Assembly: GCA_902561355.1 (NCBI GenBank)
Contig: CACEPG010000003.1
Span: 16,753 to 80,752, forward strand
Source of the DNA: an uncultured Alphaproteobacteria bacterium
Lineage (GTDB): Bacteria; Pseudomonadota; Alphaproteobacteria; HIMB59; GCA-002718135
Length of the DNA stretch: 64,000 bases
Direction of reading: 5' to 3'
Shown here: positions 4,508 to 41,124 of the stretch, one piece after another
How the letters are laid out: every line of letters starts with the position of its first letter
How positions within the stretch are numbered: position 1 is the first letter of the stretch
Position numbers and translations under genes: made by a program
Notes under the pieces: generated by a model
The model's database searches: none
What the model saw: only the letters and a program-made list of their open reading frames with translations
What the model was told of the DNA's origin: nothing

Positions 4508-5967
4508 TTTTAATTAAGTTTTTATTTTTAGGTATTTTAACAGCTTTTTTGTTTCCCCCATATATGATGTTGCCATTAGGTTTAATCATATTTCCATATC
4601 TTAATATTCAATTAAATAAAATAAAAAAAAATAAAGATAAAAAGAATTTTTTTATATATGGATTTTTATTTGGTTTAGGTTTTTTTAATTTTTTATTTAT
4701 ATGGTTGATTAACCCTTTTTTAGTTTATGAAGAAACAAAACCTTATTTTTTATTTTCTTTTTTATTTCCTTTATTTTTGTCAGTAATTTTAGGATTTTAT
4801 TTTATTTTTTTTAAATATATAAGAGATTATTTATCATCAATAATTTTTATTCCTATAATTTTTGTATTTTTTGAAATCTTAGTCTCAAACTTGTTTTATA
4901 GTTTTCCATGGACAATCTTTTCATTAATTGTATCAAATAATTTTTTAGGACTACTTTTAATTAAATATTTTGGAACACATTTTACAAGTTTTATAGTTAT
5001 TTCTTTTTTTATGTTACCTTCATTATTTATTTATAGAAAAAAAATAAAACTTTATTCAAAAATAATTATTTTTATATTTATTTTTTCTATATCTTTGTTT
5101 GTACTCTTAATTAACTATTTTTCTTATAATAATAAAAATTATGAAAAAAATTTATCTTTCGAATTGTTTCAAATGAACAATGAAATAAAAAAATTAAATT
5201 CTAATGATTCAGAAAAAATTTATCAATCTATAATTAAAAATATCAGACAATCAAATTCAGAGGTTTTAATCTTTTCTGAAAACAATTACCCGTATTTAGT
5301 TAGAAATCTTAATGATTTAGGGCTTAATTCATTTTTAAAATATAATCAAAAACTTGTTATCGGAGCGACAAGACATGAAGAAGGGAAGTACTTTAATTCT
5401 TTGCTGGTATTAGATAAAAATAAAACTAATTTTTTTGATAAAAAAATACTTGTTCCTTTTGGTGAATTTCTACCATTAAGAAAACACCTAAGTTTTATGG
5501 AAGCAATTTCTGGGTCACAAGATTTCTCATCAGGTTCTCAAAATAGAATTTTAGATTTAAATGATAAAATTAGTTTCATACCAATAATTTGTTATGAAAT
5601 AATTTTTTTCTGGAAACTTATAGATACTACAAATTATAATGCTGATATTTTAATTAATATAACAAACGATAGTTGGTTTGGACAAAAAATTGGACCATAT
5701 CAACATTTTTATTTATCAAAGATTAAAGCTGCTGAATTTAATAAAATGCTTATTAGAGTTTCAAACAATGGAATTACAGCAATTATTGATAATAAAGGTA
5801 ACTTATTACAATCCACAAATTTGAATCAAATGCAAAAGATAAAAGGTAATTTAAGTATCAAAAATAATACTAATTATGTTAAATTTCATAAATATTTTAA
5901 TTTTATTTTATTAATATTTTTCTTTTTACAAATTTTTCTAATTTTTAATAAAAAAAATGCAAAGTAA
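4504..5967 (+). CDS. lnt: Apolipoprotein N-acyltransferase
   Basis: Hydrophobic N-terminus; nitrilase triad FSE / KKILVPFGEFLP / ICYE; NDSWFG, RVSNNGIT. Confidence 0.93.
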   Translation: MILIKFLFLGILTAFLFPPYMMLPLGLIIFPYLNIQLNKIKKNKDKKNFFIYGFLFGLGFFNFLFIWLINPFLVYEETKPYFLFSFLFPLFLSVILGFYFIFFKYIRDYLSSIIFIPIIFVFFEILVSNLFYSFPWTIFSLIVSNNFLGLLLIKYFGTHFTSFIVISFFMLPSLFIYRKKIKLYSKIIIFIFIFSISLFVLLINYFSYNNKNYEKNLSFELFQMNNEIKKLNSNDSEKIYQSIIKNIRQSNSEVLIFSENNYPYLVRNLNDLGLNSFLKYNQKLVIGATRHEEGKYFNSLLVLDKNKTNFFDKKILVPFGEFLPLRKHLSFMEAISGSQDFSSGSQNRILDLNDKISFIPIICYEIIFFWKLIDTTNYNADILINITNDSWFGQKIGPYQHFYLSKIKAAEFNKMLIRVSNNGITAIIDNKGNLLQSTNLNQMQKIKGNLSIKNNTNYVKFHKYFNFILLIFFFLQIFLIFNKKNAK

Positions 5968-6616
5968 AGATTTTATTTATAGATTGTATGGAAGATCAAG
6001 ATTGAGAAGCAAAAAAAATATAGATTATAATAAAAGCAAAAATTTTATTGACAAATTTTCAATTCAAAATCTTAAAATAAATAAAAATAATATTTTAGAC
6101 ATTGGCTCAGGTTATGGTGAAAACTCTATTCTTTTAGCTAACCAGTCTAAAGATTCAATAGTTATTGCTTGTGATAATTTTTTTGATGGTAATTTTAAAC
6201 TTGCTAAAATGGCTCAGGAACAAAATATGAATAATTTGTATATTCATAATGGCAATGTTCATGAATTTTTAGATAAATTAGATCAAAATTTGTATTTTAA
6301 CTCGGTATGGATTCTTTTCCCAGATCCTTGGCCAAAAAAAAAACATTTTAAGAGAAGATTAATTAATAAGCTGTTTTTTGAAAAAATTTATAATTTTTTG
6401 AAAAAGAATGCATATATATATATTGCTACTGATTCTAAATCATATTTAAAAGAAATATTATTTCTAATTTTTAAAATAAAAAATCAGTTTATTTGGGAAA
6501 ATCAAAAAAAAATCGACTGGGATTATAAAAATGCATCTTTTGTTCAAACTAAGTACTTCAAAAAAGCTATAAAAAAGGGCTCTAATCCTTTTTTTATAAA
6601 ATTGAGAAAATTATAA
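5957..6616 (+). CDS. trmB: tRNA (guanine-N7)-methyltransferase TrmB
   Basis: LDIGSGYG, FPDPWPKKKHFKRRL, IATD, TKY motifs. Confidence 0.92.
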   Translation: MQSKDFIYRLYGRSRLRSKKNIDYNKSKNFIDKFSIQNLKINKNNILDIGSGYGENSILLANQSKDSIVIACDNFFDGNFKLAKMAQEQNMNNLYIHNGNVHEFLDKLDQNLYFNSVWILFPDPWPKKKHFKRRLINKLFFEKIYNFLKKNAYIYIATDSKSYLKEILFLIFKIKNQFIWENQKKIDWDYKNASFVQTKYFKKAIKKGSNPFFIKLRKL

Positions 6617-6618
6617 GC

Positions 6619-6647
6619 TTGAGTTTTTCTTAGATTTTTAATATAGA
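6619..6647 (+). promoter_or_regulatory. Putative sigma70 promoter of the nusA operon
   Basis: TTGAGT-N17-TATAGA, matching the alphaproteobacterial housekeeping promoter type, about 60 nt upstream of the nusA ATG. Confidence 0.55.
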
Positions 6648-6669
6648 CCTTTAAAATTTGGATAATTTC

Positions 6670-6696
6670 AAAGGTGGGATTTCCCGCCTTTTTTTT
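6670..6696 (+). terminator. Intrinsic terminator/attenuator hairpin in the nusA leader
   Basis: AAAGGTGGGA-TT-TCCCGCCTTT stem (one G:U pair) followed by a T run; GC-rich in an AT-rich background. Confidence 0.75.
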
Positions 6697-6706
6697 GGTA
6701 AAATTT

Positions 6707-8239
6707 ATGGCAAAACAAAAAATTAAAGTAATTAGAGAAGATATGCTTCAAGTTGCTAATAATGTAGCACAAGAAAAAAACATTGATGAAAATTCTGTAT
6801 TTGAGGCAATGGAACAAGCTTTAGAAAAATCTGCAAGAGTAAAATACGGTCTTGAAAGAGACATACGTGTAAATATAAATAGATCTACTGGAGACATTAA
6901 CTTGAGTTCTTATCTTGAGGTTGTAGAGACCCTTTCAGAAGAAGAGCAAGCAAAGCAAATATTATTAAATGAAGCAAAAAAAATTAATCCAGATATTAAA
7001 ATAGGAGAATTTATTGTTAAAGAACTTCCTCCTATTGAACTAGGAAGAGTGGCAGCTCAAAATGCTAAAGGTGTAATAATTCAAAAAGTAAGAGAAGCAG
7101 ATAAATCAAAGCAATATAATGAATATAAAGATAAAATAGGAGAGATTGCAATAGGAATAGTGAAGCGTGTTGAGTTTGGTAATTTAATTGTTGATTTAGG
7201 AAAAAGTGAAGCAATTATAAAAAGAGAAGAATTAATTCCTAGAGAAACATTTAAAAATGGTGACAGAGTTCGAGCTTATATTTATGAAGTAAAAAATGAT
7301 GTTAAAGGTTACCAAGTATTTTTATCAAGAAGTCACCCACAATTTTTAGCAAAATTATTTTATCAAGAAGTACCTGAAATTTTTGAAGGAGTAATAGAAG
7401 TAAAAAGTGTTGCAAGAGATCCTGGCTCTAGAGCAAAAATAAGTGTTTATACTGAGGACTCAACTATAGATCCGGTTGGAGCCTGTGTTGGAATGAGAGG
7501 TTCTAGGGTTCAAGCAGTAGTTAATGAACTTCAAGGAGAAAAAATTGATATTGTAACATGGTCTGATAATCAAGCTACTTTTCTTGCTAATGCTTTAGCG
7601 CCAGCTGAAGTAAGTAAAATTTTTTTATATGAAGAAAAAAATAAAGTAGAAGTTGTGATTCCTGATGAACAGCTTAGCCTTGCAATAGGTCGAAAAGGAC
7701 AAAATGTTAAATTAGCGTCTAATTTAACAAATTTAGAAATAGATATTTTAACTGAAGAAGAAGAATCAGAAAGAAGACAAGTTGAATTCAAAGAAAAAAG
7801 CTCATTATTAACTGAGGTTTTAGATGTTGAAGATGTAATTGCTCAATTATTAGTAACAGAAGGTTATGTCTCAGTTGATTCTATAGCATCAGAAACTCTT
7901 GAAAACATTGAAAAAATAGAGGGTTTTGATAATGATTTAGCTACTGAAATTCTTTCAAGATCAAAAAATTATATGAAAGATTTAAATGAACAAAATCAAA
8001 AAATAGTTGATGAAAATATTTTAGATGAGGATTTAAAAAATCTTAAAGGTATGACAATACAAATGTTAGCACTTTTAGCCAAAGAAAATATTTTAACTTT
8101 AAATGATTTTGCTGAACTAGCTTCTTTTGAGTTAATAGATAAAGAAGAAGGTATATTTAAAAAACTAGATCTTGATGAAAAATTGGTAAATGAAATGATT
8201 ATGCAGGCTAGAGAAAAATGGTTTGTTGAAGATAAATAA
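6707..8239 (+). CDS. nusA: Transcription termination/antitermination factor NusA
   Basis: ARDPGSRAK, GACVGMRGSRV, LSLAIGRKGQNV; ATG 6707 preferred over GTG 6674, which lies inside the hairpin. Confidence 0.97.
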   Translation: MAKQKIKVIREDMLQVANNVAQEKNIDENSVFEAMEQALEKSARVKYGLERDIRVNINRSTGDINLSSYLEVVETLSEEEQAKQILLNEAKKINPDIKIGEFIVKELPPIELGRVAAQNAKGVIIQKVREADKSKQYNEYKDKIGEIAIGIVKRVEFGNLIVDLGKSEAIIKREELIPRETFKNGDRVRAYIYEVKNDVKGYQVFLSRSHPQFLAKLFYQEVPEIFEGVIEVKSVARDPGSRAKISVYTEDSTIDPVGACVGMRGSRVQAVVNELQGEKIDIVTWSDNQATFLANALAPAEVSKIFLYEEKNKVEVVIPDEQLSLAIGRKGQNVKLASNLTNLEIDILTEEEESERRQVEFKEKSSLLTEVLDVEDVIAQLLVTEGYVSVDSIASETLENIEKIEGFDNDLATEILSRSKNYMKDLNEQNQKIVDENILDEDLKNLKGMTIQMLALLAKENILTLNDFAELASFELIDKEEGIFKKLDLDEKLVNEMIMQAREKWFVEDK

Positions 8240-31566: not shown

Positions 31567-34311
31567 ATGAATAAACAAAATAGATTAATTTTAATTGATG
31601 GTTCTGCCTATATTTTTAGAGCCTATTATGGATTACCCCGAATGAATAGGTCAGATGGCACACCTATAAATGCAGTTTTTGGATTTACTAACATGCTTGT
31701 TAAACTAATAGAGGATTATCGTGACAATAAAATGATTGTAATATTTGATGCAGCAAGAGAAAATTTTAGAAATCAAATTTATAAAGAATATAAAGCTAAC
31801 AGAGGTGAAACTCCTGAAGATTTAATACCGCAATTTGATATAATTCGAAAATGTGTAGATGCATTTAAAATACCTCAGTTAGAAATAGAGGGATATGAAG
31901 CAGATGATATTATCGCTACATTTACAAAACTTGCAACTAACAAAAAAATGCATTCATTAATAATTTCTTCTGACAAAGATTTAATGCAGTTAGTTAATGA
32001 AAATGTTTCAATGTTAGATCCAATGAAAAATAAAAATATAGGTATAGATCAGGTTATTGAGAAGTTTGGTCTTCCTCCAGAAAAAGTTATTTATATACAA
32101 GCTTTAACTGGAGACAAAGTTGACAATATTCCTGGAGCTCCAGGAATAGGACCTAAAACAGCACTAGAATTAATTAAAAATTTTGGAGATATTGATGGTT
32201 TACTCAAAAATTCGAATAAAATTAAACAAGAAAAAAGAAGAGAAGCTATAAATGATTCAGTAAAAGATATTTTAACTAGTTTAGAATTGGTAAAATTAAA
32301 GAATGATATAAATTTACCAATTCAAATAGAAAGCATAAAAGCATTTTCTTCAATTGATGATAATACTAATAGCATAATTGAGTTTTTAGGAGAGCAAGGT
32401 TTTAAATCAATTTCCCAAAGATTAGAGAATAATGCTAATGTTTTTTCTAATGTTACTAGAGAAAAACAAAATAAAGTTGAAAAAAATCAATATATTTTAA
32501 TTAATTCTAAAAAAAATTTAGAAGAAATTATATCTAATATCAAGAGAAAGGGTTATTGCACAATTGATACAGAAACGAATTCACTCAATATTGAAAAAGT
32601 AAAATTAGTTGGAGTTTCTTTATGTTGTGAAGAGAACATTTCATATTATATTCCAATCAACCATTTAGATAAAAAAACATCAAAAAAAATTAAAAGCCAA
32701 CTAGATGAAGATTATGTTTTAAATCATTTAAAAAATTTATGTGAAGATAACTCTATACTTAAAATTGGTCAAAATATTAAATTCGATATAAGAGTTTTAG
32801 AGTGTTATAATATTAAAGTTAATTCAATTGCTGATACAATGTTGATGTCCTATGCATTAGATAATGGAATCATCAAACATAATATGGATGATCTAGCATT
32901 TACTCATCTACAACATAGTTGTATAAAATTTAAAGATGTAGTTGGAAGTGGTAAAAGCGAAATTACATTTGATTATGTTGAAATAAATAAGGCTGTTAAT
33001 TATGCAGCGGAAGATGCTCTAGTAACTTTAAAGTTATATAATTTGTTGTTACCAAGAATAATAAGAGAAAAAACTAGATTTGTTTATGAGGATATTGATC
33101 TTAATTTAGTCAATGTTTTATCTTCTATGGAAACTAACGGCATTAAGATTGATAACAAATATTTAAAAGAATTAAGTTATCAATTTGAAATTGAAAGTAA
33201 TAAAATTGCTAGTAAAATTTTTAAAATTTCCAAAAAAGAATTTAATATAGGTTCACCAAAACAATTAGGTGAAATTCTTTTTTTAGATTTAAAAATAGAA
33301 GGTGCCAAAAAGACGAAAAAAGGAGCATTTTCTACAGATTCTTCTACGCTCCAAGATTTAGAATCAAGAGGATATGAAATCGCTAAGCTTGTACTTGAGT
33401 GGAGAGAAGTAACAAAACTCAAGTCAACCTACACAGATGCTTTGCAAGAACAGTCTACTAAAAAAACAGACCGAGTTCATACCTCTTATGGTATAGCCAA
33501 TACTTTGACTGGAAGATTGAGTTCAAATGATCCAAATTTACAAAATATACCTATAAGAACTGAAAATGGAAAAAAAATTAGAAAAGCTTTTATATGTGAA
33601 AAAAATACTAAGTTGATAAGTTTTGATTATTCTCAAATAGAATTAAGATTAGCTGCTGAAATTTCAAAAGATAAAAATTTTATTAATGCATTTATTAATA
33701 AAGAAGATATTCATTCATCAACAGCAAAAGAAATTTTTAATGTTTCTGATAAAAATTTAAATTCTGATTTAAGAAGAAAAGCTAAAGCAATTAATTTTGG
33801 TATTTTATATGGCATCAGTCCTTATGGATTAGCAAAACAACTAAATATTACAAACTCTGAAGCAAAGATATATATTGAAAATTACTTCCATAAATATCCT
33901 AAAATTAAGGAGTATATGAATTTTCAAATTCAATCTGCAAAATCTTCTAATTTTGTATCAACAATTTTTGGGAGACGTTGTAACATTAAAGGAATTAATG
34001 ATAAAAATTTTAATGTACGAGGCTTTGCTGAAAGACAAGCTATAAATGCACCAATCCAAGGAAGTGCAGCTGATATAATTAAATTAGCGATGATTCAAAT
34101 TCATAACAAAATTATATCAAAAGAAATACCAGCTAAAATGCTACTACAAGTACATGATGAATTGATATTTGAAGTAGATAAAAATAAAATTAATAATGTT
34201 TCAGAAAATATAAAAAATATTATGGAAACAGCACATTTAAAATATAAAAATTTTACTGTTCCTCTGACAGTTGAATTTGGTTTGGGTGATACTTGGGCTG
34301 AATCTCATTAA
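31567..34311 (+). CDS. polA: DNA polymerase I
   Basis: 5'-3' exo LIDGSAYIFRAY, 3'-5' exo IDTET, polymerase DYSQIELR, KAINFGILYG, LQVHDEL. Confidence 0.98.
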   Translation: MNKQNRLILIDGSAYIFRAYYGLPRMNRSDGTPINAVFGFTNMLVKLIEDYRDNKMIVIFDAARENFRNQIYKEYKANRGETPEDLIPQFDIIRKCVDAFKIPQLEIEGYEADDIIATFTKLATNKKMHSLIISSDKDLMQLVNENVSMLDPMKNKNIGIDQVIEKFGLPPEKVIYIQALTGDKVDNIPGAPGIGPKTALELIKNFGDIDGLLKNSNKIKQEKRREAINDSVKDILTSLELVKLKNDINLPIQIESIKAFSSIDDNTNSIIEFLGEQGFKSISQRLENNANVFSNVTREKQNKVEKNQYILINSKKNLEEIISNIKRKGYCTIDTETNSLNIEKVKLVGVSLCCEENISYYIPINHLDKKTSKKIKSQLDEDYVLNHLKNLCEDNSILKIGQNIKFDIRVLECYNIKVNSIADTMLMSYALDNGIIKHNMDDLAFTHLQHSCIKFKDVVGSGKSEITFDYVEINKAVNYAAEDALVTLKLYNLLLPRIIREKTRFVYEDIDLNLVNVLSSMETNGIKIDNKYLKELSYQFEIESNKIASKIFKISKKEFNIGSPKQLGEILFLDLKIEGAKKTKKGAFSTDSSTLQDLESRGYEIAKLVLEWREVTKLKSTYTDALQEQSTKKTDRVHTSYGIANTLTGRLSSNDPNLQNIPIRTENGKKIRKAFICEKNTKLISFDYSQIELRLAAEISKDKNFINAFINKEDIHSSTAKEIFNVSDKNLNSDLRRKAKAINFGILYGISPYGLAKQLNITNSEAKIYIENYFHKYPKIKEYMNFQIQSAKSSNFVSTIFGRRCNIKGINDKNFNVRGFAERQAINAPIQGSAADIIKLAMIQIHNKIISKEIPAKMLLQVHDELIFEVDKNKINNVSENIKNIMETAHLKYKNFTVPLTVEFGLGDTWAESH

Positions 34312-34431
34312 ATGAAAAAAAAAGAAAAAAAACAAAATCCAATAGCAAAAGATTTACGAAGCCCTAAGTATAAACAAAGAACTGTTAAAAATAAAAAAAT
34401 TTATAATAGAAAGAAAAAAATTATTACTTAA
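34312..34431 (+). CDS. Small basic 39-aa protein, ArfA-like (not in ORF track)
   Basis: ATG immediately after the polA TAA; reads MKKKEKKQNPIAKDLRSPKYKQRTVKNKKIYNRKKKIIT*; fills the polA-grx gap exactly. Confidence 0.65.
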   Translation: MKKKEKKQNPIAKDLRSPKYKQRTVKNKKIYNRKKKIIT

Positions 34432-34667
34432 AAATTCTCATCTGGATTATTAAAAGCAAGCCACTGTTCTAATTGATTATATGTTCCTATATGTTCGTTA
34501 TTAATAATGATTTGTGGGAATGTTTTAGCATTAGGAAATTTTTGAAAAAATTCTTCTCTTGTAAAATCTTTATCAAGCATGAATATTTGAGGATTATATT
34601 TTGAAAGGCGCATTTTGGCTCTATCACAAAATATACAATTAGTTTTAGAATAAATTTCTGCTTTCAT
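34428..34667 (-). CDS. Glutaredoxin associated with ribonucleotide reductase
   Basis: YSKTNCIFC (CxxC), TFPQI, HIGTY; coupled to the nrdB stop (TAATG). Confidence 0.9.
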   Translation of the reverse strand: MKAEIYSKTNCIFCDRAKMRLSKYNPQIFMLDKDFTREEFFQKFPNAKTFPQIIINNEHIGTYNQLEQWLAFNNPDENF

Positions 34668-35656
34668 TAAAAAGCTTCATCAAAACTAAGAGCCCTATCA
34701 GTCGGTCTTTGATATTCAGATACTCTTTTTTCAAAGAAATTCGTTACATTTTGAACATCTAAAGCACGCATAAAATCAAAAGGATTTTCAGTATTAAATA
34801 CTCTTTCAAATTCAAATAAATCAGCAATTCTATCAGCGACCGCTTCAATATAATCGCACATTAAGTTTGCATTCATTCCAATTAAATCGACTGGTAATGC
34901 ATCTTTTACAAATTCTTTTTCAAATGATACAGCTTCTCTAACTATCTCTTCAAATTGTGACTGAGGAACTTCATTTGGTATTAAAGATAGAGCAGAAATA
35001 TCCGAGTCTGTTAATGATCCATTAGTAAATTTATCTCGAAGAGTTTTAAACATTAAAGCTGAAAAACTAAAATGCATACCCTCATCTCTTGCAATCCAGT
35101 CATTAGAAAGTGCTAAACCAGGAAGCAAACCTCTTTTTCTAAAATAATATATAGCACAAAATGATCCTGCAAAAAATAAACCTTCTACTAATCCAAAACC
35201 AATTAAACGAGTAAGTAAATTTTGATTTCCGTTTAACCACTTAGAAACCCATTGTGCTTTATGGTTAATACACGGAACATTTTGAATAGCATCAAAAAGT
35301 AAGTCTTTTTCCTTTTGATCTTTAACATAAGCCTCTATTTGTAAACCATACATTTCAGCATGAATGGATTCATTAAGCATTTGCATTGATATAAAACATC
35401 TAGCTTCTGGAATTAATATCTCTTTATAAAATCTACTTGCCAGATTTTCATTTATCATTGCTTCAGAATTTGCAAAGTACGCAAGCACATGTTTTATAAA
35501 ATGTTTTTCACCCTCATTTAAAGTTTGTAAATCTCTTAAATCATCTTGTAACGACACTTCTTCTGGTGTCCAAAAAGCCTGAATATGTAATTTATACCTA
35601 TCCCAGATATCTTGATGCTTTATAGGAAAAATTGATTTAACTCCTTTAGATATCAT
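34667..35656 (-). CDS. nrdB: Class I ribonucleotide reductase beta subunit
   Basis: FWTPEEV, ESIHAEMY, VEGLFFAGSF, RDEGMH, NFFEKRVSEY. Confidence 0.96.
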   Translation of the reverse strand: MISKGVKSIFPIKHQDIWDRYKLHIQAFWTPEEVSLQDDLRDLQTLNEGEKHFIKHVLAYFANSEAMINENLASRFYKEILIPEARCFISMQMLNESIHAEMYGLQIEAYVKDQKEKDLLFDAIQNVPCINHKAQWVSKWLNGNQNLLTRLIGFGLVEGLFFAGSFCAIYYFRKRGLLPGLALSNDWIARDEGMHFSFSALMFKTLRDKFTNGSLTDSDISALSLIPNEVPQSQFEEIVREAVSFEKEFVKDALPVDLIGMNANLMCDYIEAVADRIADLFEFERVFNTENPFDFMRALDVQNVTNFFEKRVSEYQRPTDRALSFDEAF

Positions 35657-35670
35657 TTATATAATCTCTT

Positions 35671-38433
35671 TTATGCACTGCATGTTAAACAATCTTCTGG
35701 ATCATCATTTTCAGTAACGGCATTCTTTAAAAAATCCTCCTTGGCAACTTTTTCTGATGAAACAGTTACCTTGACAGCATCAACAGCTGATCTACTTCTA
35801 AGATAATACATACCTGTTTTTAAACCTTTTTTCCAAGCATACATATGCATTGAATTAACTTTTCCAAAAGTCGGTGTTGATAACCATAAATTCATAGACT
35901 GAGTTTGATCTATAAATGGAGCCCTATCAGCGGCCATATCAATTACTGTTTTTTGAGATGTCTCCCAAACTGTTTTATAAGTTTCTTTGAGATCTTCAGG
36001 AAAATTTTGAATATTTTGCACAGAACCGTTTTCTAAAATAATTTTATCACGCATTTCTTTATTCCAAAGGTTGCGTTTAGATAATGCTTTAACTAGGTGT
36101 CTATTAACTAATAAAAATTCTCCAGATAAAGTTTGTCTTTTATAAATATTAGAAGTTTGTATTTGAAAAGTTTCTGTATTTCCTAAGATTATTCCAGTAG
36201 AGGCAGTTGGCATACATGCTGTAGTAAGAGAATTTCTAACACCTACTTTTTTAATTTTTTCCCTTAGAGATTCCCAATCCCACATATTTGAGGGTTCAAT
36301 TCCCCATAAATCAAATTGAAATTTTCCTTGAGATAAAGGGGAGCCTTTAAAAGTCGAGTATGCTCCTTTTTCTTTAGCCAGTTCACAGGATGCTTCTAAT
36401 GCACCAAAATAGATTGTTTCAAATATTTTTTTATTAATTTTCTTAGCTTCTTCACCATCATAAGGAATATCTAATTCAAAGAATACATCTGCTAGACCCT
36501 GAATACCCAATCCGATTGGTCTGTGCTTATTATTAGAAACTTCAGTTTTGTTGGTTGGATAGAAATTTATACCAATTACTTGATCTAAATTTTTTGTAGC
36601 TAGTTTAGCAGTTTCATATAATTTTTTGTAATCATATTCTTTGGTTTTGTTTTTCTGTGATTTTATAACAAATTTAGGTAATGCAATTGAAGCTAAATTA
36701 CAAACTGATGTTTCATTTTTATCAGAATACTCAACTATTTCAGCACAAAGATTTGATGATTTAATTACACCTATGTTTTTTTGGTTAGATTTATTATTAA
36801 TCGAATCTTTATACAACATATAAGGCTGACCCGTTTCTATTTGAGCTTCTATGATTTTAGACATTAATGCTCTTGCTTTAATCTTTTCTAAATGAGGTAA
36901 TTCCTTTTCATATTTTTCATATAGTTCTTCAAAATCTTTACCATATTTATCAGACAAACCAGGACATTCATGTTCACTCATAAGAGTCCAATCATCATCA
37001 CTCTCCACTCTTTTCATAAATAAATCAGGTATCCATAATGCATAGAATAAATCTCTAGCTCTAAATTCTTCTGCACCAGTATTTTTTCTTAGTTCTAAAA
37101 ATTTTTCAATATCAGCGTGCCAAGGTTCTAAATATACAGCAAAAGAACCTTTGCGTTTGCCACCACCTTGATCAACCGATTTTGCTGTTTCATTAAAAAT
37201 TTTTAAAAAAGGAATTAATCCATTAGATTTCCCGTTAGTTGATTTTATTCTGCTCCCACTACCTCTTATGTTATGTGCATGCATTCCTATTCCACCAGCT
37301 GTTTTTGATATTAAAGCACAATCTTTAATTGTGTTAAAAATACCATCAATTGAGTCATCTTCCATACCAATTAAAAAACATGATGATAATTGTTGCATTT
37401 TTAAACCACTATTAAAAAGGGTAGGTGTAGCATGAGTATAAAAACCGTTAGATAAGCTATAATATGTCTTTTTAACTTTTTCTAAATCAAAACTGTCACA
37501 GGAAACTGTTAGAGCCACCCTCATCCACAAATCTTGAGGACGTTCTATTGTTTTGTTTTCAAATTTTAATAAATAAGCTCTTACTAAAGTTGTAAATGCA
37601 AAATAATCAAAATTATAATCTCTATCATAATCAATAACCGATTCTATTTCTTCAGCATTTGCCATTACTTTATTGTAATACTCATCTCTTAAAAGACCAT
37701 CATCAAATAAATTTTTTGTTGCAATTATAAAACCTGGCGTTTCTTTATGCAGAGAATTAGCTTTTATGCGTGCTGCTAAGTATGAATAATCAGGATGTTC
37801 AACTGTTAGAGATGCAGCAGTTTCAGCTAGGTATGTATCAATTTCGATTGAAGTAATATCATTATATAATCCCGGAACTGCTTTTTGAACAACAACTATT
37901 GGATCTATTCTCAAACCAGTTGACAATACAGAAACTCTGTTAGTTATTTTATCTAAAGAAATAGGTTCTTTAGTTCCATCTCTTTTTGTAACCATCATCG
38001 ATGAAGCTTTAGCCCCAACTTGTTCTTTTAGTTTTTTAGTATGATATCGAGAAGCAGCTCTTTGTTCTCGATACAACACATATGCCCTAGCTACTTTATG
38101 ATGCTCATCTCTCATTAAAGCCAGTTCAACCTGATCTTGGATATCTTCAATGTGAATCATATCTCCATCAGCAATTCTTCTAGTTAGTGCAGACACCACT
38201 TTATGAGTAAGACCTTCTACAGTTTTATGAATACTGTCTGTTTGTTCTTTTTCGTGATTTTTATTATTTCTAATTTTTGTTTGAGCAAGGAAAGCTTTTT
38301 TTATTGCGTTAGATATTTTATTAGCTTTAAAAGGTGTTATAGATCCATCTCTTCTAACTACACTCAAACTTAACAGATTAACGCTTTTGTCTTTTATATC
38401 TTTGACCGCTGATACGGGTGAATTGTCTGCCAT
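35671..38433 (-). CDS. nrdA: Class I ribonucleotide reductase alpha subunit with two ATP cones
   Basis: THATPTLFN, QLSSCFL, SSNLCAEI, VCNLAS, GMYYLR, C-terminal CLTC; two N-terminal V(V/T)(R/K)RDG cones. Confidence 0.97.
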   Translation of the reverse strand: MADNSPVSAVKDIKDKSVNLLSLSVVRRDGSITPFKANKISNAIKKAFLAQTKIRNNKNHEKEQTDSIHKTVEGLTHKVVSALTRRIADGDMIHIEDIQDQVELALMRDEHHKVARAYVLYREQRAASRYHTKKLKEQVGAKASSMMVTKRDGTKEPISLDKITNRVSVLSTGLRIDPIVVVQKAVPGLYNDITSIEIDTYLAETAASLTVEHPDYSYLAARIKANSLHKETPGFIIATKNLFDDGLLRDEYYNKVMANAEEIESVIDYDRDYNFDYFAFTTLVRAYLLKFENKTIERPQDLWMRVALTVSCDSFDLEKVKKTYYSLSNGFYTHATPTLFNSGLKMQQLSSCFLIGMEDDSIDGIFNTIKDCALISKTAGGIGMHAHNIRGSGSRIKSTNGKSNGLIPFLKIFNETAKSVDQGGGKRKGSFAVYLEPWHADIEKFLELRKNTGAEEFRARDLFYALWIPDLFMKRVESDDDWTLMSEHECPGLSDKYGKDFEELYEKYEKELPHLEKIKARALMSKIIEAQIETGQPYMLYKDSINNKSNQKNIGVIKSSNLCAEIVEYSDKNETSVCNLASIALPKFVIKSQKNKTKEYDYKKLYETAKLATKNLDQVIGINFYPTNKTEVSNNKHRPIGLGIQGLADVFFELDIPYDGEEAKKINKKIFETIYFGALEASCELAKEKGAYSTFKGSPLSQGKFQFDLWGIEPSNMWDWESLREKIKKVGVRNSLTTACMPTASTGIILGNTETFQIQTSNIYKRQTLSGEFLLVNRHLVKALSKRNLWNKEMRDKIILENGSVQNIQNFPEDLKETYKTVWETSQKTVIDMAADRAPFIDQTQSMNLWLSTPTFGKVNSMHMYAWKKGLKTGMYYLRSRSAVDAVKVTVSSEKVAKEDFLKNAVTENDDPEDCLTCSA

Positions 38434-38472: not shown

Positions 38473-38488
38473 ACACAATATGTAGTGT
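38473..38488. promoter_or_regulatory. NrdR box 1 upstream of nrdA
   Basis: ACACAATATGTAGTGT versus consensus acaCwAtATaTwGtgt; about 40 nt upstream of the nrdA start. Confidence 0.85.
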
Positions 38489-38732: not shown

Positions 38733-39446
38733 ATGACCTCAATTGCATTAGTAGATGACGAGCAGTCGATTCTAGCTTCTGTTAGCTTAGCTTTAGAAGC
38801 TGAGGGTTATGAAGTAGACACATTTCATAATGGATTAGAGGCATTAAATGCACTCGAGAAAAATAATTACGATCTTGGATTATTTGATATTAAAATGCCA
38901 AAGATGGATGGCAATGAATTATTAAGTAAAGTTAGAAATAGTAAAAAAACTGACCTCAAGGAGATGCCAATAATTTTTTTAACATCTAAAGATCAGGAAC
39001 AAGATGAAATTATAGGTTTAAGAATGGGAGCCGCAGATTATATAAAAAAACCTTTTTCTCAAAAATTATTAAATGAAAGAATTAGAACGGTTTTAAGAGT
39101 CTATCAAAATAGAAAAAACGATAATAGTTTTTCAGCAGAAACAAAAAAAAATTTAAAAAAAGGTAGTTTAGAATTAGATGAATTAAAACAATTGTGTTTT
39201 TGGAAAAATCAAATAATAGAATTAACTGTAGCAGAATTTAATTTAATAAAATCTTTAGCTAAATATCCAGGAGTAGTTAAAGATAGAAACCAACTACAGG
39301 ACTCAATGTATGGTGATAGTGTTTATGTTGATGATCGTACAATAGATAGTCATATAAAACGTCTTCGAAAAAAATTTAAATCTTACGATCCTTTGTTTGA
39401 TCAGATACGTACTCGTTATGGTTCTGGATATTCATGGCGTGAATAA
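38733..39446 (+). CDS. chvI: OmpR-family response regulator ChvI
   Basis: IALVDDE, DIKMPKMDG, IFLTSKD.E.DE..GL.MGA.DYI.KPFSQ, YVDDRTIDSHIKRLRKKF. Confidence 0.92.
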   Translation: MTSIALVDDEQSILASVSLALEAEGYEVDTFHNGLEALNALEKNNYDLGLFDIKMPKMDGNELLSKVRNSKKTDLKEMPIIFLTSKDQEQDEIIGLRMGAADYIKKPFSQKLLNERIRTVLRVYQNRKNDNSFSAETKKNLKKGSLELDELKQLCFWKNQIIELTVAEFNLIKSLAKYPGVVKDRNQLQDSMYGDSVYVDDRTIDSHIKRLRKKFKSYDPLFDQIRTRYGSGYSWRE

Positions 39447-41124
39447 ATATAAAAGGTTTAATTTATCTAATTATCCCTTAAGATTACAAATATTTGTAAT
39501 TAATTTGTTAATTGCATTATTTGGATTTTTATTTTTTATTTTTTTTAATATTTATTTAATTCAAAATGATAAAAATTTAATCAATGATTTTGAATATACT
39601 GAACAAAATTTATTTAGTATAAAAAATTTTTTAGAAAAAAATTCTATTGCCCGGGTCCCACTTTTTGACGATACTTGTAAAAGAATTGATAAAAAAAACT
39701 GTAAAAATAAAAGTGAGTTAAAAAATACGCTTGAACTCTCGGAACCTGTTTTAGAGCCAAAAATTACTCAACAATATATTTTACAAAATTATCTAAATAA
39801 AATATTTAATGTTAAAATTTATAATGATGATTGGATCAAACTTGCTGATACGCAAGATCTATATAGTTCATCAAATGTAGAGGAGTCTGATTTATCAGAT
39901 TCTATAGAAAATAGCACAGGAATTTACCAAATATATAATGAATTTTATCAAAATCTATTTAGAGAATATTATCTAAAATTTATTAAAAATAAATTTATTG
40001 ATGAAGTTGAGAAACAAAAAAGTGATATTGTTAAAGTAGCCCAAACAATTAAAACCAAAACTATTATTAAAAAAAAATTTATTGATTCTGATGAAAATAT
40101 TTTTCAATTATTCTCTTCCCCAATAATATTTAATGAAAGCGTATATGGAGTTATTCTTATTTCTTATCCTTTATTAAATAACAAACAAACCCTCGGTATA
40201 ATTTCTTTTAATCTATTTAATTTTTATATTCTTTTTGTTCTAGTGATGATTTCTCTTTCATTCATATTTTCAAGAGGTTTAGTAAGCCCTATAAAAAAAC
40301 TATCAAATCTAACTATTTTAGAAAGAGACAAGGTTTCTAATAAGAAAATACAATATCCAAATAGGAAAGATGAAATAGGAATTCTATCAAAAGAAATACA
40401 AAACATGTCTTTAGATTTAAAATCTCAAATTTCGCAGCTAGAAAAATTTGCAGCAGATGTTTCTCATGAGTTAAAAAATCCATTAACAAGTCTTCAATCT
40501 GCAAGTGAGCTTTTGTTGAAAGATACGTTATCAGAAGAGAACAAAAAATTATTAATTGATAATATAAATAAAGATATAAAAAGAATGAATCATTTAATCA
40601 CCGATATATCTAACTTCACAAGAATTAAAGCTGAGGTCGAGTTGGCAAAAAATGAATTTATTAATATTAATGATTTTATTAAGGAAGTATCAAATTATTT
40701 CTCAGATAACTCTAAAAAAATAAAAATAATTGTTGAAGAAATTGATAAAAATTTTGTAATTTTAGCAAACAAAAGTAAGTTGCTTCAAGTATTTATTAAT
40801 ATAATTGATAATAGTATTTCAATTGCAAATAAAAATACTAAAATTTTACTTCAAATAAATTCACATGATCAAAATCAAGTACAGGTAAAGATATATGATC
40901 AAGGAAAGGGCATTTCTTTAGATGATCGTGAAAGAATTTTTAATAGATTTTATACTGATAGAGAGTTTGATAGAAATAATCACACAGGTTTAGGATTGTC
41001 CATAGCAAGAGAAATAATTCTATCTTTTAAAGGGTCTATACAATTAACAGTTTCCGATAAAAATAATTATACAGGTGCTTGTTTTATAATAATTTTACCT
41101 GTAAGAACTCTAAACACAAACTAA
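39439..41124 (+). CDS. chvG: Sensor histidine kinase ChvG/ExoS
   Basis: Two TM helices, HAMP (RKDEIGILS), H-box FAADVSHELKNPLTS, RFYTDR, TGLGLSI; GTG 39439 is the likely start. Confidence 0.9.
   Translation: MNKYKRFNLSNYPLRLQIFVINLLIALFGFLFFIFFNIYLIQNDKNLINDFEYTEQNLFSIKNFLEKNSIARVPLFDDTCKRIDKKNCKNKSELKNTLELSEPVLEPKITQQYILQNYLNKIFNVKIYNDDWIKLADTQDLYSSSNVEESDLSDSIENSTGIYQIYNEFYQNLFREYYLKFIKNKFIDEVEKQKSDIVKVAQTIKTKTIIKKKFIDSDENIFQLFSSPIIFNESVYGVILISYPLLNNKQTLGIISFNLFNFYILFVLVMISLSFIFSRGLVSPIKKLSNLTILERDKVSNKKIQYPNRKDEIGILSKEIQNMSLDLKSQISQLEKFAADVSHELKNPLTSLQSASELLLKDTLSEENKKLLIDNINKDIKRMNHLITDISNFTRIKAEVELAKNEFININDFIKEVSNYFSDNSKKIKIIVEEIDKNFVILANKSKLLQVFINIIDNSISIANKNTKILLQINSHDQNQVQVKIYDQGKGISLDDRERIFNRFYTDREFDRNNHTGLGLSIAREIILSFKGSIQLTVSDKNNYTGACFIIILPVRTLNTN

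Follow-up and report, generated by a model that had tools for sequence, protein, structure and literature searches.

Which metal cofactor serves a class I ribonucleotide reductase (RNR) small subunit that has the scaffold of the eukaryotic R2 proteins and keeps their radical Tyr, but carries Glu in place of the Asp that is their first metal ligand? The question is raised by nrdB (34667–35656, minus strand), a gene in a 64,000-nucleotide stretch of DNA from an uncultured alphaproteobacterium of the HIMB59 lineage (contig CACEPG010000003.1); we refer to the whole of this stretch as the window. Together with nrdA and a glutaredoxin gene, grx, it encodes what we interpret as a working, essential eukaryote-type class I RNR whose Glu-type NrdB most likely holds a di-iron, Ia-like centre, a reading to which we give about an even chance. 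The metal itself is not readable from sequence, and di-iron is what we infer.

The 329-residue NrdB, whose translation contains LAYFANSEAMINENL, scores 297.4 bits against the class I RNR small-subunit family PF00268 (cut-off 33.6; E 1.3e-88). In a phmmer search of all PDB chains the top match is mouse R2 (1h0n, 1w68 and 1xsm; E 1.4e-90), with human RRM2 and p53R2 (2uw2, 3hf1) next in rank, and every printed alignment with mouse and human R2 pairs Glu65 with the Asp of the site-1 ligand position in other eukaryote-type R2 proteins (in mouse, 'vlaffaasdgivnenl'). A preliminary description of this DNA had proposed the replacement and had placed its GAA codon at 35464–35462, which translation and alignment confirm to the base (35462–35464, minus strand). 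It had also held that the other ligands, the radical Tyr103 and the C-terminal Tyr are kept on a scaffold resembling NrdBe, the eukaryote-type group, and here too it was right, as the eukaryotic R2 proteins are the closest relatives of NrdB in both sequence and fold.

These retained residues, all encoded on the minus strand, were located by alignment and checked by codon. Helix C carries the motif E96-x-x-H99-x-x-x-Y103 (35348–35371), comprising a bridging Glu, the site-1 His and the radical Tyr; the site-2 ligand Glu158 (35183–35185) is followed by the Tyr-pocket residues F162 and F166; and a third segment (35072–35095) contains the pocket residue I188, the second-sphere D191, the bridging E192 and the site-2 His H195. 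Tyr315 (34712–34714) aligns with the Tyr of mouse 'geYqr' and is the C-terminal radical-transfer residue. The protein has both ExxH motifs (E96/H99 and E192/H195), two more carboxylate ligands (E65 and E158), the pathway Tyr and W29, giving a first-sphere pattern E-E-H-E-E-H of four Glu and two His beside the retained Tyr103. In an alignment of 73 rows, 53 of them Asp-type, W29, E96, H99, Y103, E158, F162, F166, I188, D191, E192, H195 and Y315 are invariant, and the Ia-type surroundings of the Tyr (F162, F166, I188, W29, D191) are intact in NrdB. Ile occupies position 188 in 135 of the 136 Glu-type sequences, the remaining one being a fragment with a gap there, and in 313 of 314 Asp-type ones; lying four positions before the bridging Glu, I188 reads as the Ia-type hydrophobic pocket residue. 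An AlphaFold2 model (predicted local distance difference test score 87.6) is closest in fold to human RRM2 (3olj), with a template-modelling (TM) score on the target of 0.91, a root-mean-square deviation of 1.8 Å and 44–45% identity; its helix B is unbroken across residues 48–79, lacking the break seen in class Id, although this geometry is possibly inherited from the Asp-type rows that make up 53 of the 73 in the input alignment.

Glu65 is fixed throughout the relatives of the window's protein. It is present in all 120 of the closest database proteins (88–94% identical, with the common motif FANSEAMINEN), in 80 of 80 loci from species-representative genomes, and in 83 of 83 further family members recovered by a search started from an Ichthyobacterium protein; all loci fetched from relatives carry the Glu motif under a looser pattern, and 30 of 31 do so under a stricter one. 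The preliminary description had left room for homologues with Asp, but inside the clade every close homologue aligned has Glu. Asp and Glu codons are one third-position change apart; across 115 loci (some genomes counted twice) codon 65 is GAA in 65 cases and GAG in the other 50, with no Asp codon among them, and Glu65, kept through synonymous change, is under selection. Within the window's order, nrdB is found at 84% identity or more in 157 of 187 genomes, and in 21 of the 22 that are at least 90% complete. Four genomes that are 96–100% complete each have a single PF02867 match and a single, adjacent PF00268 match, and none of the four has a match to the class III family PF13597. Since this is the only RNR found in these near-complete relatives, the Glu-type enzyme must, as judged from gene content, be active.

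The Glu variant extends beyond the lineage of the window to a wider family, and a mobile cassette of Vibrio and Photobacterium carries it too. Only six genomes in a 401-genome sample of the class have an NrdB match at E ≤ 1e-40; these are from the window's order, plus two of one other alphaproteobacterial family, which are 78–81% identical and also have Glu. Among the 150 nearest representatives of clusters at 50% identity (drawn from 1.8 billion proteins), 127 have Asp, two have Glu, and 21, being fragments or long proteins whose match begins near residue 100, are not alignable at site 65. One of the two Glu representatives is a fragment from the window's own clade, and the other is a singleton, P0229. 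When P0229 was used as a query, 119 relatives were recovered, 110 with Asp and nine with Glu, the latter from Vibrio harveyi, Vibrio sp., V. tapetis, Photobacterium damselae subsp. piscicida, Ichthyobacterium seriolicida and others; the Vibrio, Photobacterium and Ichthyobacterium proteins are about 61% identical to the window NrdB.

We built two trees, both quick searches with midpoint rooting and no bootstrap. The first, a maximum-likelihood tree of 53 rows that kept 46 of 149 representatives (to be kept, a sequence needed at least 290 aligned positions and at most 60 inserted residues), places seven Glu rows on a single branch nested among the Asp-type rows, with a Shimodaira–Hasegawa approximate likelihood-ratio test (SH-aLRT) value of 100 and a stem of 0.49. 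The second, of 81 rows, comprises the first set less two near-duplicates, together with eight Glu-type rows and 22 drawn at random from the 110 Asp-type rows of the P0229 search, and unites 12 of its 13 Glu rows (SH-aLRT 99, stem 0.35). The trees point to the Glu forms being one well-supported clade within the eukaryote-type R2 family, and this clade consists of the window's order (HIMB59/AEGEAN-169-like), the second alphaproteobacterial family and the mobile cassette of Vibrio, Photobacterium and Ichthyobacterium. P0229 lies on a long branch (1.79) beside the clade in the second tree, in an unsettled neighbourhood, and a single origin of all Glu types including P0229 may still apply. An origin of the Glu type in phages is rejected: all 73 alignable viral-contig relatives (of 79) have Asp. 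The viral-contig matches to NrdB are all at most 49% identical, and four phage and plasmid relatives (L197–L200), 48–53% identical to the Vibrio form, also have Asp. As a separate observation, most of the 21 unalignable representatives (P0140, P0150, P0164–P0166, P0169, P0171, P0181, P0185, P0186 and others) are proteins of 450–860 residues that match from about residue 100; they may reflect inteins or fusions in eukaryote-type R2 genes.

Five other positions distinguish the two types when aligned sequences are split by residue 65 into 136 Glu-type and 314 Asp-type members, the latter all retaining Asp (window coordinates are on the minus strand). Ile68 (35453–35455) is Ile in 136 of 136 Glu-type sequences and Val in 300 of 314 Asp-type ones; Ile89 (35390–35392) is Ile or Leu in 135 of 136, against Tyr in 303 of 314; Ala163 (35168–35170) is Ala in 135 of 136, against Ser in 299 of 314; and Tyr171 (35144–35146) is Tyr in 136 of 136, against Trp in 295 of 314. 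Asn95 (35372–35374), a second-sphere residue that precedes the bridging Glu, is Asn in all 136 Glu-type sequences, while the Asp-type sequences have Met or Ile in 285 and Asn in 12 of 314. The 83 additional Glu-type members have the same signature, with Ile, Met or Leu at position 89. Scored over all six states, 451 sequences give scores of 0 in 273, 1 in 32, 2 in nine, 3 or 4 in none, 5 in two (P0229 has five of the six states) and 6 in 135. Because all Glu forms lie in one clade, this co-occurrence amounts to a single event in their history, which is no proof that the positions are functionally coupled. Among the nearest Asp-type relatives, two on giant-virus contigs from metagenome-assembled genomes (L118 and L120) and two further proteins already have I68 and N95 (D-I-Y-N-S-W), and in sequence they look like intermediates toward the Glu-type signature.

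The partner large subunit is likewise of eukaryotic type. Directly upstream of nrdB, on the same strand and separated by a 14-nucleotide gap, nrdA (35671–38433, minus) encodes a 920-residue large subunit with the barrel (PF02867, E 1.5e-211), the all-alpha domain (PF00317) and two N-terminal ATP-cone stretches (PF03477). Its closest solved relative is human RRM1 (5d1y, E 2.4e-280 over residues 140–918), and it carries YY876-877 and a C-terminal CLTC. The start of grx (34428–34667, minus), which encodes a 79-residue glutaredoxin (PF00462, E 8.5e-10; under the TIGR02181 cut-off), overlaps the nrdB stop. The role of Grx is inferred, and it is probably the reductant of NrdA; a tblastn search with the window Grx finds a match after nrdB in four of five Glu-type loci, and the fifth (L195), which gives no match, has an annotated glutaredoxin-domain coding sequence in that place.

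The L195 locus (4690–8191) is an nrdA-nrdB-grx module on a 136-kb plasmid of P. damselae subsp. piscicida, where it lies between an IS1-like and an IS91-family transposase gene (insertion sequences, IS), and the same module occurs on a 2.06-Mb record of Vibrio campbellii. It looks like a mobile RNR cassette of fish-associated Vibrio, Photobacterium and Ichthyobacterium, whose Vibrio and Photobacterium hosts presumably also have a standard class Ia enzyme. The window NrdA finds a counterpart in the Vibrio and Photobacterium cassette no earlier than its residue 146, and the cassette protein lacks the first ATP-cone. Residues 1–145 of the window protein (37996–38433) form an extra N-terminal cone, and human RRM1 aligns only from residue 140; the second cone was therefore either gained in the alphaproteobacterial branch or lost elsewhere.

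How does this NrdB compare with the recognised class I patterns? Class Id was first set apart by its Tyr/Glu combination, with Tyr/Asp in classes Ia and Ib and Phe/Glu in class Ic (PMC8463856). In Table 4 of PMC6370689, NrdBe is listed as D-E-H-E-E-H with Met, Ile or Val before the bridging Glu, a position that Tables 3 and 4 of that paper define as second sphere, and apart from NrdBi these tables show no group that pairs Glu with a retained Tyr. The window NrdB has the eukaryotic R2 proteins as closest relatives, as expected of NrdBe, but its first ligand is Glu and N95 stands in place of Met, Ile or Val; with E-E-H-E-E-H accompanied by Asn, Asp and Tyr, it fits no row of the table.

We favour a di-iron cofactor because the Ia machinery is intact, the adaptations of classes Id and Ic are absent, and iron-bound structures of E. 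coli R2-D84E exist. On this reading the dinuclear site would react with an oxygen species and oxidise Tyr103, which we take to carry the stored radical, to a stable radical in the unchanged pocket of F162, F166 and I188. The hole would then pass by way of W29 and Tyr315 to NrdA (YY876-877), which the co-encoded glutaredoxin would re-reduce through the C-terminal CLTC, while the two ATP-cones would control activity and NrdR would probably control transcription. By analogy with the engineered E. coli R2-D84E, the iron step may be Ia-like chemistry with altered kinetics of O2 activation. Several observations weigh against this choice of metal. All characterised natural class I beta subunits with Glu at this position, those of classes Ic and Id, use Mn in the accounts of PMC8463856 and PMC6370689. 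The invariance of Asp in the 314 aligned relatives outside the clade makes it unlikely that the change is trivial, and substitutions at five further, highly conserved positions accompany it. The module also lies between IS elements on the P. damselae plasmid and occurs on the large V. campbellii record, and an add-on RNR would be more useful to its hosts if its cofactor needs differed from those of the resident enzyme. We put a di-iron-tyrosyl cofactor at even chances, regard a Mn-containing one as a substantial minority possibility, and leave the remainder to other arrangements.

The strongest alternative is that the family has moved to a Mn-containing cofactor (Mn2 or Mn/Fe) on the eukaryote-type scaffold, without NrdI, the oxidant being either a Tyr103 radical or the metal centre itself; we regard this as a credible, if less probable, account. 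After those of classes Ic and Id, it would be the third independent Asp-to-Glu transition, and in effect the family would form a further class I subclass. There are precedents: the Tyr/Glu pair first distinguished class Id and class Ic also has Glu (PMC8463856; PMC6370689, Tables 3 and 4), and it is the Asp-to-Glu change that separates NrdBi from its sister group NrdBk, which has Asp (PMC6754362). The strict fixation of Glu in the family and of Asp in the outgroups fits such a shift, as do the co-occurring substitutions at four positions otherwise at least 94% conserved, although these trace to the single event noted above. The family's place as sole RNR of surface-ocean bacterioplankton and as an add-on mobile cassette in fish-associated hosts also fits, and the tie to iron-poor seawater, which the preliminary description had suggested, is circumstantial. 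That description's statement that nrdI is missing holds: PF07972 has no match in the window's genome (68% complete) and none over the cut-off in five relatives 92–100% complete. The metal-homeostasis genes do not discriminate between iron and manganese: a ZnuA/TroA-family metal-binding protein occurs in two of the five genomes tested, but in neither genome from the second family; Nramp was found in none of the five; and all five encode an Fe/Mn superoxide dismutase, whose activity would compete for superoxide.

The residues that accompany Mn in class Id speak against this alternative. NrdBi has Trp at +7 from its Glu and, in the subgroup studied, Lys at +4 (PMC6754362), and a Thr hydrogen-bonds and sequesters the Tyr, as does T191, four residues before E195, in Flavobacterium johnsoniae (PMC8463856). 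At the Lys and Trp positions the window NrdB has N69 and L72, and at the Thr position, located by a backward count from the aligned ligand and not by structural alignment, it has I188; its Tyr pocket and W29-D191 path resemble those of class Ia. The broader proposal of the preliminary description, that an NrdBe-like scaffold had shifted to Mn, is upheld in its Glu/Tyr pairing on a eukaryote-type scaffold, and finds no counterpart in the second-sphere features of class Id. That the Glu-type NrdB represents an undescribed class I subclass, in which a eukaryote-type scaffold independently exchanged di-iron for Mn2 or Mn/Fe while keeping the Tyr and assembling without NrdI, is a suggestion that we advance tentatively.

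A simpler proposal, that the Glu-type NrdB is a class Id member (NrdAi/NrdBi), shares with the data the first-sphere set E-E-H-E-E-H and the retained Tyr (E65, Y103), and we consider it very improbable. The closest solved relatives are eukaryotic R2 (E 1e-90) and Chlamydia R2 (1e-33), none of the three second-sphere adaptations is present, and NrdA is eukaryote-type with two ATP-cones, while class Id alpha subunits have no ATP-cone (PMC5794259). The other subclasses are rejected as well: class Ic (NrdBzc) because Y103 is invariant and is not Phe, Leu or Val; class Ib (NrdEF) because NrdB scores 62 bits against a TIGR04171 cut-off of 355 and no PF07972 match exceeds the cut-off in the six genomes; and class Ie (NrdFe), in which three carboxylates are lost (to Q/V, S/P and K), because E96, E158 and E192 are present. 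The weakest proposal, that Glu65 reflects a sequencing error, private mutation or gene decay, found no support in our data and has a negligible chance of being right, given Glu in every relative counted above, the use of both its codons, intact reading frames and the gene's standing as part of the sole RNR of near-complete genomes.

Upstream of nrdA, at a distance of about 40 bp (38473–38488, minus), is a 16-bp palindrome, ACACTACATATTGTGT, that resembles an NrdR box; nowhere else in the window does the pattern occur with two or fewer mismatches, and nrdR (TIGR00244) is present in the window's genome and in four relatives. The polA gene (914 residues; 31567–34311, plus) is convergent with the RNR operon, and we found no terminator-like hairpin between it and grx; a response-regulator/histidine-kinase pair (38733–41124, plus) is divergent from the operon.

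In the main text of openly accessible papers on NrdBe, Pelagibacter, HIMB59/AEGEAN-169, class Id and Vibrio/Photobacterium, no account of a Glu-type eukaryote-like NrdB turned up; the AEGEAN-169 paper mentions neither ribonucleotide reductase nor manganese, and the literature searched yielded no RNR paper on D84E and nothing under the names of mouse R2 residues. Each previous departure from the canonical pattern of R2 ligands and Tyr (classes Ic, Id and Ie) marked a new cofactor (PMC8463856), and the Glu type departs from it cleanly and across a whole family, on the R2 scaffold that has been studied most, that of eukaryotes, in an enzyme that is the only route to deoxyribonucleoside triphosphates in its near-complete marine genomes. 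If the metal is iron, the family offers a natural parallel to D84E, the E. coli variant with which intermediates of O2 activation have been trapped. If it is manganese, a new subclass would bear on the trace-metal economy of the ocean, the DNA synthesis of abundant surface-ocean bacteria would be freed from an iron requirement, and the plasmid cassette would be an iron-independent back-up RNR for fish-associated vibrios. With either metal, published tables in which NrdBe is uniformly Asp need a footnote. The Glu-type NrdB is a good biochemical lead and a well-defined target for metal analysis and electron paramagnetic resonance, and because it occurs in cultured Vibrio harveyi/campbellii, Photobacterium damselae and Ichthyobacterium seriolicida, it is directly testable.

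Among known systems, the cyanophage beta subunit 'Cyano SP', proposed as subclass If (PMC6370689), resembles the window NrdB in being marine, in its E-E-H-E-E-H ligands and in standing outside the established groups, but it has no radical Tyr, has a second-sphere Asp (Table 4 of that paper) and is not eukaryote-type. Class Ic, represented by the Mn(IV)/Fe(III) NrdB of Chlamydia trachomatis, shares the Glu first ligand and an NrdA with multiple ATP-cones, and Chlamydia R2 is the second-best group of solved relatives (E 1.6e-33); the window protein differs in keeping Tyr103 where Ic has Phe, Leu or Val and in a second-sphere Asn where Ic has Glu (PMC6370689, Table 4). Class Id (F. johnsoniae, Leeuwenhoekiella blandensis, Facklamia ignava; Mn2(III/IV), assembled with superoxide) shares Tyr/Glu, four Glu and two His, the lack of NrdI and an associated glutaredoxin, fused in F. 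ignava and encoded by the adjacent gene in the window. It belongs to another phylogenetic group, however, and the window differs from it in lacking the Lys, Trp and Thr, in the continuous helix B of the model, and in having ATP-cones on NrdA rather than on NrdB. A parallel to the ligand change is a laboratory mutant, E. coli R2-D84E, which reportedly has a long-lived peroxo intermediate and still forms the Tyr radical. It makes the same exchange on an Ia-type, Tyr-bearing di-iron scaffold (PDB 1pim, 1piu and 1piz; D84E/W48F, 1pj0), with iron-soaked and reduced crystal structures indicated by the titles of 1pim and 1pj0, although it belongs to a distant subgroup (E 3e-15 to the window NrdB). 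Closest of all is the eukaryote-type Ia R2 (mouse R2, human RRM2 and p53R2; NrdBe, with an Fe2(III/III)-tyrosyl radical cofactor), which is the best match in sequence and fold and shares with the window NrdB the Tyr radical site and its pocket, the W-D-H path and the C-terminal Tyr, and the partner NrdA is nearest human RRM1; the window enzyme departs from it in its Glu first ligand, in N95 in place of Met, Ile or Val, in I68, I89, A163 and Y171, and in the extra N-terminal ATP-cone of its NrdA.

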